Assembly (NCBI RefSeq): GCF_003334255.1
Contig: NZ_QOWU01000028.1
DNA from: Escherichia coli
GTDB lineage: Bacteria; Pseudomonadota; Gammaproteobacteria; Enterobacterales; Enterobacteriaceae
Strand: one strand, 5' to 3'
DNA: 59,824 nucleotides
Shown: piece after piece, positions 37,737 to 38,328 of the stretch
Layout of the letters: every line of letters begins with the position of its first letter
Position numbering within the stretch: the stretch's first letter is position 1
The notes under the pieces: model-generated
What the model was told of the DNA's origin: nothing
What the model saw: only the letters and a program-made list of their open reading frames with translations
Database searches by the model: none
Program-made: the position numbers and the translations under genes

Positions 37737-38009
37737 ATGAATATTTATACCTTTGATTTTGATGAGATTGAGAGTCAGGAGGATTTTTATCGTGACTTTA
37801 GCCAAACCTTTGGTCTGGCGAAAGATAAGGTACGCGATCTCGACTCACTATGGGATGTGTTAATGAACGATGTCCTGCCGCTACCACTTGAGATTGAATT
37901 TGTTCATCTGGGAGAGAAAACGCGTCGCCGTTTTGGCGCGTTAATATTGCTGTTTGATGAGGCAGAGGAAGAGCTGGAAGGGCATTTGCGTTTTAATGTT
38001 CGTCATTAG
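37737..38009 (+). CDS. yhcO: Barstar-like (ribonuclease-inhibitor fold) protein
   Basis: 90-aa acidic [30 protein letters not shown]... resembling barstar. Confidence 0.85.
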
Positions 38010-38012
38010 CGC

Positions 38013-38038
38013 AAAAAAAAGCCCCCGAACCGGGGGCA
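38013..38038. terminator. Bidirectional terminator between convergent yhcO and yhcN
   Basis: AAAAAAAAGCCCCCGAACCGGGGGC hairpin with an A-run on one side, between two convergent stops. Confidence 0.6.
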
Positions 38039-38064
38039 ATATCGTCGGACAAGACGATGAGGGT

Positions 38065-38328
38065 TTATTTGTACAGTTCAGCCGTAGCGTGCCAGGTGTC
38101 ACCGCTACGAGCTTCAGTAATCTGGTAGGCCGTTGCGCCTTTCTCTTCCGCTTTTTTGTTCAGCATTTCACGCATATCCATTGGCGAAGACGCCACACCA
38201 CTTACGGATACGGTCCCGATTGCTTCACGATTTTGTGCTTGTGCAGCATCAATGGAGTCGGCAGCGAATGCACCGAAAGAGAGAACAGAAAGTACGCTTA
38301 ATGCAGCAACAGTGGTTTTGATTTTCAT
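38065..38328 (-). CDS. yhcN: Periplasmic stress-response protein (DUF1471 / YhcN family)
   Basis: Start at MKIKTTVAALSVLSVLSFGAFA (signal peptide), 87 aa. Confidence 0.85.
   Translation of the reverse strand: MKIKTTVAALSVLSVLSFGAFAADSIDAAQAQNREAIGTVSVSGVASSPMDMREMLNKKAEEKGATAYQITEARSGDTWHATAELYK

Follow-up and report, generated by a model that had tools for sequence, protein, structure and literature searches.

yhcO of Escherichia coli as the surviving half of a probable ancestral secreted ribonuclease-barstar operon

The 59.8-kb stretch of Escherichia coli chromosome analyzed here (contig NZ_QOWU01000028.1 of assembly GCF_003334255.1, 59,824 nucleotides, referred to as the window) contains, in this order, the genes tldD, aaeR, aaeXAB, yhcO, yhcN, argR, mdh, degS, and degQ, and the present study is concerned with yhcO, the structural gene for a small barstar family protein. 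An open reading frame (ORF) on the plus strand that starts with ATG and encodes 90 amino acyl residues plus stop corresponds to yhcO; it is separated by a spacer of 91 bp from the end of aaeB at position 37645. In an earlier note, made from the sequence alone, the span 37737-38328 had been assigned to a barstar-like YhcO, located between aaeXAB upstream and a convergent yhcN downstream, lacking any toxin ORF within several kb, and being an orphan immunity-like protein that might guard against a nuclease encoded elsewhere or delivered by competitors, or might have been repurposed. Both ORFs and annotation agree with the neighbors named there, and the barstar gene is indeed present in that span, although the span comprises two genes, of which yhcN has no relation to the barstar question. 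The features on which the argument rests are the following.

37737..38009, plus strand: yhcO coding sequence; product 100% identical to 2CX6, PF01337 domain, no neighboring ribonuclease gene
37827..37877, plus strand: yhcO codons 31-47, i.e., α1-α2 loop, helix α2, and next loop, equivalent to the surface of barstar that binds barnase, placed by alignments and a per-site table
38065..38328, minus strand: yhcN, encoding a DUF1471 peroxide/acid stress protein of 87 amino acyl residues (NCBIfam NF033776, 147 bits versus a cutoff of 125)

YhcO is identical over all of its 90 residues to the protein in PDB entry 2CX6 ("hypothetical protein yhcO"), the title of which reads "Crystal structure of ribonuclease inhibitor Barstar," and a structure also exists for the Salmonella orthologue (5F4C), which is 77% identical. 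The Pfam family Barstar (PF01337) matches residues 1-81 with an E-value of 2.4e-9, RefSeq labels the gene "yhcO: barstar family protein," and the precomputed domain listed for its homologues in public databases is Barstar as well. In the AlphaFold2 model (pLDDT 94), strands and helices follow each other in the order E-H-H-E-H-H-E, with the three parallel strands and four helices of the Barstar α/β fold, and Foldseek superposes this model on barnase-bound barstar chains with TM scores of 0.77-0.81 and a root mean square deviation of about 2.1 Å. The barstar-like character that had been noticed earlier is borne out by the PF01337 match and by the two solved structures, which align with barstar at a TM score of about 0.8; the structure prediction that had been suggested as a check gives the same answer, and the absence of a barstar fold, named as the outcome that would speak against the idea, is not what was found. 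YhcO is acidic (pI 4.5), and its only domain is that of barstar, a DNA-binding domain being absent; among the libraries scanned, neither the PADLOC defence library nor NCBIfam contained a model matching it. The gene and its barstar annotation were already known and, as an entity, it is ordinary.

A profile search through 1.84 billion representative proteins yielded only 132 clusters for YhcO, and among the distant homologues those from Xenorhabdus (44% identity) and one from a metagenome (47% identity) are encoded directly 3' of a PF00545 Ribonuclease gene which in turn follows tldD. Scanning at one genome per species gave 80 loci, to which the Xenorhabdus locus L003 was added, and the genes for TldD, AaeR, AaeA, AaeB, YhcN, ArgR, Mdh, aldehyde dehydrogenase (Aldedh), DarP, and the ribonuclease (RNase) were mapped onto them. 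In 55 of these loci, the yhcO orthologue is preceded at a distance of 1-5 bp, or overlapped, by the end of a gene of the barnase family. Such RNase-yhcO pairs are present in Yersiniaceae, Hafniaceae, Morganellaceae, Budviciaceae, and others, and are found, for example, in Serratia, Yersinia, Ewingella, Rouxiella, Chimaeribacter californicus, Edwardsiella, Xenorhabdus, Providencia, Arsenophonus, and Limnobaculum. In Yersinia and Serratia, the pair occupies the same site, downstream of tldD-aaeR-aaeXAB(-aldH), and the complete order in Yersinia, Ewingella, Rouxiella, and Chimaeribacter is tldD-aaeR-aaeXAB-aldH-RNase-yhcO-darP-pmbA. The order in Citrobacter, Enterobacter, Lelliottia, Kosakonia, and Erwinia mallotivora is aaeXAB-aldH-yhcO-yhcN-argR-mdh. 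Since the 5' flank is shared, yhcO and the RNase-linked genes are positional orthologues.

The RNase gene is missing from all 20 Enterobacteriaceae-type loci, and the 20 corresponding YhcO sequences form one clade in 100 of 100 neighbor-joining bootstraps, with Yersiniaceae as nearest relatives; a single ancestral deletion is therefore the parsimonious account. Very probably, yhcO is the surviving half of a secreted-RNase/inhibitor pair from which the RNase was deleted in place in the ancestor of the Enterobacteriaceae. The description of YhcO as orphan immunity-like stands insofar as there is no cognate RNase, but an acquired or island-borne origin does not, as yhcO is a vertically inherited core gene whose partner was deleted in place. 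No published account of an in-place RNase deletion, or of an origin deduced from synteny, was found in the literature searched, and the explanation may be new but incremental.

Independent decay of the RNase with retention of the inhibitor is observed in three further lineages. In Chimaeribacter arupi, aldH is followed by a 65-bp spacer and yhcO (7935-8001 of locus L073) and the RNase is gone, whereas the sister species C. californicus keeps its RNase gene (7559-7996 of L071). In Hafnia psychrotolerans, an in-frame RNase remnant of 58 residues precedes the barstar gene (7819-7995 of L082; E=8.7e-5 with the RNase profile); it consists of a signal peptide plus "GRRGTDRVLFASDG", the region of the catalytic Glu having been lost by an internal deletion, and it looks like a case of RNase loss caught in progress. 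In an Arsenophonus endosymbiont, the RNase copy is frameshifted. When the region 5' of yhcO was inspected for an RNase vestige in 20 RNase-less loci (18 of Enterobacteriaceae type plus those of C. arupi and H. psychrotolerans), one was seen only in H. psychrotolerans. The inhibitor of C. arupi retains the ancestral FGANLDALWD motif.

The gene designated aldH encodes an aldehyde dehydrogenase of about 490 residues and separates yhcO from aaeB in many Enterobacteriaceae and, with the RNase gene next to it, in Yersiniaceae (about 6430-7960 in loci L012, L014-L019, L022, L024, L027, L029, and L050; 4506-5960 in L002). It is gone as well from Escherichia, Salmonella, and Klebsiella, which, judged from gene order, implies a second deletion at this junction.

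The RNases that accompany the inhibitors in the other families comprise 137-191 residues, mostly about 150, and begin with a hydrophobic signal sequence. The mature domain of the Serratia enzyme (S. marcescens gene at 7534-7995 of locus L028, other RNase genes being distributed across L028-L087) matches barnase with an E-value of 1e-38, and the catalytic residues K27, E73, R83, R87, and H102 of barnase are conserved in the enterobacterial RNases. Isoelectric points are 9-9.7 for the RNases versus 4.3-4.8 for the inhibitors, and the pair is a classical arrangement of secreted RNase and intracellular inhibitor. The enterobacterial RNases also share a pair of cysteines (GNLC ... NYxCG) where barnase has A43 and S80, and their best match in the PDB is 1BNE, which has Cys at both positions versus Ala and Ser in wild-type barnase. 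We take 1BNE to be an engineered disulfide mutant of barnase. The cysteine pair suggests a natural 43-80 disulfide in the enterobacterial enzymes, which would fit export to an oxidizing compartment.

A few records fall outside this taxonomic distribution. A yhcO with 100% identity to that of E. coli is found on a 241-bp scaffold of Corynebacterium lipophiloflavum (L020) and another with 71% identity on a 422-bp contig of Hydrogenophaga intermedia (L025), and an RNase-barstar pair of enterobacterial type is present on a 5.6-kb contig of a Sphingobacteriales metagenome-assembled genome (L080, Bacteroidota); the occurrence of yhcO or of the pair on short contigs of unrelated genomes is most likely due to assembly contamination or mis-binning. 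Three proteins of 137 residues from European Nucleotide Archive metagenomes (P0029, P0031, and P0032) are identical to YhcO in residues 1-80 and continue with a precomputed LytTR (PF04397) region; as the contigs are about 1-3 kb long, a frameshift or a chimeric gene prediction is the probable origin of these proteins.

The center of the surface with which barstar contacts barnase is kept in YhcO. Residues D36, W39, D40, and E75 correspond to barstar D35, W38, D39, and E76 and are invariant in 18 of 18 orphans, i.e., YhcO sequences with no RNase partner. Barstar D35, W38, D39, and E76 contact Arg59, Arg83, Arg87, and His102 of barnase (PMC4207830, Table 1). A DxxxD motif on helix 2 has been used to define the Barstar family (PMC3482391). 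YhcO contains this motif, and D36 and D40 do not vary across 34 family members including barstar itself, while W39 is almost without variation. The acidic residues of this plug are reported, in work attributed to Schreiber, Buckle and Fersht from 1994, to destabilize the barstar fold. They are conserved despite this cost in stability and therefore point to a constraint from binding rather than from folding.

We propose that Enterobacterales ancestrally possessed a two-gene operon in which the gene for a basic, signal peptide-bearing RNase of the barnase family would have been followed by that for an acidic cytoplasmic inhibitor of barstar type, the latter shielding the producer before export of the RNase. 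This operon would have been situated downstream of tldD-aaeR-aaeXAB(-aldH), where yhcO still sits, and a single deletion in the last shared ancestor of the Enterobacteriaceae-type clade would have removed its RNase gene, with the inhibitor being kept. Because of its homology, its retained plug residues, and its acidity, YhcO is predicted to be a stoichiometric, tight-binding competitive inhibitor that would place helix α2 in the basic active-site cleft of RNases of the N1/T1/barnase family. Produced as part of the sigma-S stress regulon, it could serve as a standing defence when competitors inject toxin domains of barnase type as cargo of Rhs/type VI secretion systems (T6SS) or of contact-dependent inhibition (CDI) systems. 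Imm-Barstar proteins have been described as specific for barnase-like toxins (PMC3482391), and Rhs effectors encoded in pathogenicity island SPI-6 of Salmonella possess a predicted "Ribonuclease/Microbial RNase" C-terminal domain together with an adjacent Barstar gene (PMC10469887). To the account as a whole, a relic inhibitor of an ancestral RNase operon that is still barstar-like and has an anti-toxin use, we assign a probability of roughly 55%. Its last part, continued RNase inhibition as standing protection against injected barnase-type toxins, is more tentative, and we would put its chances slightly below even.

Several observations weigh against continued inhibition. At the periphery of the contact surface, F31, G32, N34, A37, and T43, all invariant in the RNase-linked orthologues, have changed in the orphans: F31K, G32V, and A37S are each present in 18 of 18, N34D occurs in 12 of 18, and T43 is variable; in addition, one residue is inserted at position 44. 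At the peripheral contacts of barstar (Y29, N33, T42, and G43/W44), E. coli YhcO has D30/K31, D34, and M43 plus the insertion, and the RNase-linked orthologues retain F, G, N, and T at the peripheral contact positions. Barstar N33 and T42 make polar contacts with barnase (PMC4207830), and the affinity or specificity of YhcO has therefore probably changed. As far as the alignments go, the electrostatic plug is kept and the specificity periphery is loosened or retuned. Mean entropy of residues 27-47 is 0.99 bits in orphans versus 0.54 bits in RNase-linked sequences, and that of the rest of the protein 0.64 versus 0.89 bits; when the dN of a segment is divided by the dS of the whole gene, residues 27-47 give 0.216 for orphans versus 0.080 for RNase-linked genes and the rest 0.133 versus 0.118. 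In orphans, the contact segment evolves faster than the rest, and the relation is reversed in paired genes. Orphan immunity genes are usually accessory and island-borne, whereas yhcO is a core gene. Salmonella strains that are predicted to possess Rhs-barnase effectors carry a dedicated Barstar gene next to them, which hints that yhcO alone may not protect. Finally, a clean deletion of Salmonella STM3363 was found to swarm more at unchanged flagellar number, with no RNase challenge being involved (PMC4534456), and this phenotype points to some other cellular role. The equation of STM3363 with yhcO is our inference from the Barstar-domain description in that paper and the name given in 5F4C.

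Alternatively, the inhibitor may have been repurposed after the loss of the RNase, its acidic face being retargeted to another basic intracellular partner, for example a different nuclease or a nucleic acid-binding protein, so that YhcO would act as a sigma-S-dependent regulator in stationary phase or under stress instead of in immunity to toxins. The newly fixed K31, V32, and S37 (18 of 18) and the extra residue in the contact loop of the orphans fit such retargeting, as do the loss of contacts that are invariant in RNase-linked orthologues and the shift of relative constraint off the classical interface. The gene is core to the species and under multiple control, being RpoS-dependent (PMC2907692), induced after an acid shift (PMC2270276), and activated by LldR in a study that calls its function unknown (PMC10272880), and the increased swarming of the Salmonella STM3363 deletion at the same flagellar number would be explained as well. 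However, no partner is known, the swarming phenotype is uncomplemented (PMC4534456), D36, W39, D40, and E75 are still invariant, as continued RNase inhibition also predicts, and dN/dS of the contact segment is still well below 1. We regard repurposing as less likely than continued inhibition, of which it is the main rival. A more specific version, in which, following an RNase loss older than the family, the RNA-mimicking acidic helix would have been exapted to bind a new basic target and YhcO would have become a sigma-S-controlled regulator of surface behavior, as in Salmonella swarming, the retargeting being due to K31, V32, S37, and the additional residue of the loop, is a little less likely still; if true, it would document the conversion of an immunity protein against a toxin into a housekeeping regulator. 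In the literature searched, no functional study of E. coli YhcO was found, only expression data and the one motility phenotype from Salmonella.

According to another explanation, the gene for a cognate RNase of barnase type would reside at another place in the E. coli genome or on its plasmids and YhcO would act on the product in trans, for which only the idea that toxin-antitoxin-like pairs may become unlinked can be adduced. A profile hidden Markov model (HMM) of the RNase, built from barnase and 16 enterobacterial homologues, gave nothing above noise against the six-frame translation of the whole window (best E-value 0.39), and the annotation within 20 kb on either side of yhcO lists housekeeping genes and no RNase toxin, so that the earlier statement about the absence of a toxin ORF within several kb holds over a much wider range. 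A blastn comparison of the Serratia RNase-inhibitor operon with 5426 complete E. coli genomes gave no match other than to yhcO itself, in its 3' part. By tblastn, barnase homologues were absent from the Enterobacteriaceae among 72,556 PLSDB plasmids, those recovered being from Bacillus, Clostridium, Aerococcus, Acetoanaerobium, and two 4-Mb Proteus records. To our knowledge, the K-12 proteome is devoid of a PF00545 member. Among the best 120 proteins listed as RNase homologues, nearly all are from Serratia, Yersinia, and relatives, a listing that is unfit to show absence from E. coli. A partner acting in trans is very unlikely, and the proposal that YhcO protects from a nuclease encoded elsewhere in the genome receives no support from the genome, plasmid, and window searches, which were all negative for Enterobacteriaceae. 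RNase G (rng) and csrD, which are located 10-17 kb upstream, had been considered as partners and were dropped, as they belong to the housekeeping synteny and their fold is unrelated to that of barnase. The two Proteus mirabilis records (NZ_OL790811.1 and NZ_OL790812.1), although part of a plasmid collection, are of chromosome size (4.08 Mb), and each contains a barnase homologue that is 64% identical to the Serratia RNase; Proteus likely keeps the RNase-inhibitor pair too.

That yhcO might be a functionless relic, slowly decaying after the loss of its partner, is even less probable than a partner in trans; the missing partner and a contact loop that is more variable than in paired orthologues would fit it, but the selection data effectively refute it. 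Each of 5426 complete E. coli genomes (5426 of 5426) contains the yhcO-yhcN region, 5419 of them at a coverage of at least 80%, and the yhcO ORF is intact in 20 of 20 Enterobacteriaceae-type species loci. Long stretches of the sequence are invariant. Median dN/dS among orphans is 0.155 (pairwise Nei-Gojobori, 38 pairs with dS of 0.05-1.5), the comparison of E. coli with E. whittamii gives 0.069, RNase-linked orthologues give 0.109, and overall values for yhcO are about 0.05-0.15. The gene is under purifying selection and is not decaying; moreover, it is expressed and regulated. Of the 5432 places matching the yhcO-yhcN region, one belongs to a plasmid record, and the region is duplicated in one genome at least. 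The least probable explanation is that yhcO, as a solitary member of an immunity-protein family, was acquired horizontally in the manner of the acquired interbacterial defence islands of Bacteroides, as the gene shows none of the accessory, mobile, or horizontal traits of an orphan immunity gene, synteny is conserved across the family with no mobile elements as neighbors, the orphan clade is monophyletic and adjoins Yersiniaceae orthologues at the same locus, and the PADLOC defence library provides no match. Membership of a type II toxin-antitoxin system was ruled out, as the ancestral partner was exported (signal peptide) and YhcO has no DNA-binding domain.

The intergenic regions on both sides of yhcO contain the following candidate signals.

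37652..37677, plus strand: hairpin and T-run 3' of the aaeB stop codon (ACCGACGC-caaaa-GCGTCGGT-TTTTT), read by eye
37683..37689, plus strand: CTATACT, a sigma-S-type -10 element 48 nt 5' of the yhcO ATG, from sequence
38021..38037, minus strand: GC-rich hairpin GCCCCCG-gtt-CGGGGGC followed by T8, terminator of yhcN
38040..38059, plus strand: weaker terminator-like hairpin 3' of yhcO, consensus match only

The first hairpin, which was not in the output of a simple terminator scan, is probably the terminator of aaeXAB, in which case yhcO would be a transcription unit of its own, and CTATACT is a candidate for its promoter. A GCTATACTTA motif 5' of yhcO, just past the aaeB terminator, is found in Escherichia and Klebsiella loci (L021, L023, and L026); it is missing where aldH precedes yhcO, and there a GC-rich hairpin is located in the short aldH-yhcO spacer instead. 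Judged from these spacers, the upstream signals acquired by the orphan yhcO seem to differ from genus to genus. Between 37400 and 38800, no Rfam family reached its gathering score. Downstream of yhcO, two tandem yhcN-like DUF1471 genes are present in most Enterobacteriaceae (L013-L029, about 8330-9000) and one in Escherichia loci.

One of the closest known systems is barstar of Bacillus amyloliquefaciens (1BRS, 1BGS), the intracellular inhibitor of the secreted barnase, which shares with YhcO the Pfam family, a TM score of about 0.8, the DxxWD motif of helix 2, the acidic Glu of helix 4, its acidity, and its size. However, sequence identity between the two is only about 20%, yhcO has no adjoining RNase gene, YhcO has other residues in place of barstar Y29, G31, N33, and T42 or their equivalents, its loop following helix 2 is one residue longer, and inhibition is so far a prediction. 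In Yersinia, Serratia, Xenorhabdus, Edwardsiella, and others, operons are annotated as "ribonuclease" or "ribonuclease N" plus "barstar family protein"; their inhibitors are orthologues of YhcO, with 41-57% identity and a C-terminal half conserved in common, and are encoded at the same chromosomal site, downstream of aaeXAB(-aldH) or tldD, but these operons keep a secreted barnase homologue just upstream and the FGxN...T contact motif, and E. coli has neither. Adjacency to a barnase-family RNase gene, which is lacking in E. coli yhcO, is observed in orthologues of four sister families. The Imm-Barstar proteins of polymorphic toxins (Rhs/T6SS, CDI, or type VII secretion cargo with Tox-Barnase; Zhang et al., 2012) belong to the same domain family, and such toxins could be the threat that an orphan inhibitor counters; however, Imm-Barstar genes lie directly downstream of the toxin cassette in variable loci, whereas yhcO stands alone and belongs to the core genome. 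In having no cognate toxin in the same genome, yhcO resembles orphan immunity genes and acquired interbacterial defence clusters, but these are accessory, often clustered, mobile, and fast-evolving, whereas yhcO is a single gene that is inherited vertically and subject to purifying selection.

yhcO is a remaining "y-gene" of E. coli for which a structure has been solved, and the origin proposed here turns "function unknown" into concrete, testable hypotheses. It provides a clean natural example of the asymmetric decay of an enzyme-inhibitor pair, in which the toxic partner was lost repeatedly and the protective partner persists family-wide, and it bears on the origin of orphan immunity genes and on the question of their later co-option.

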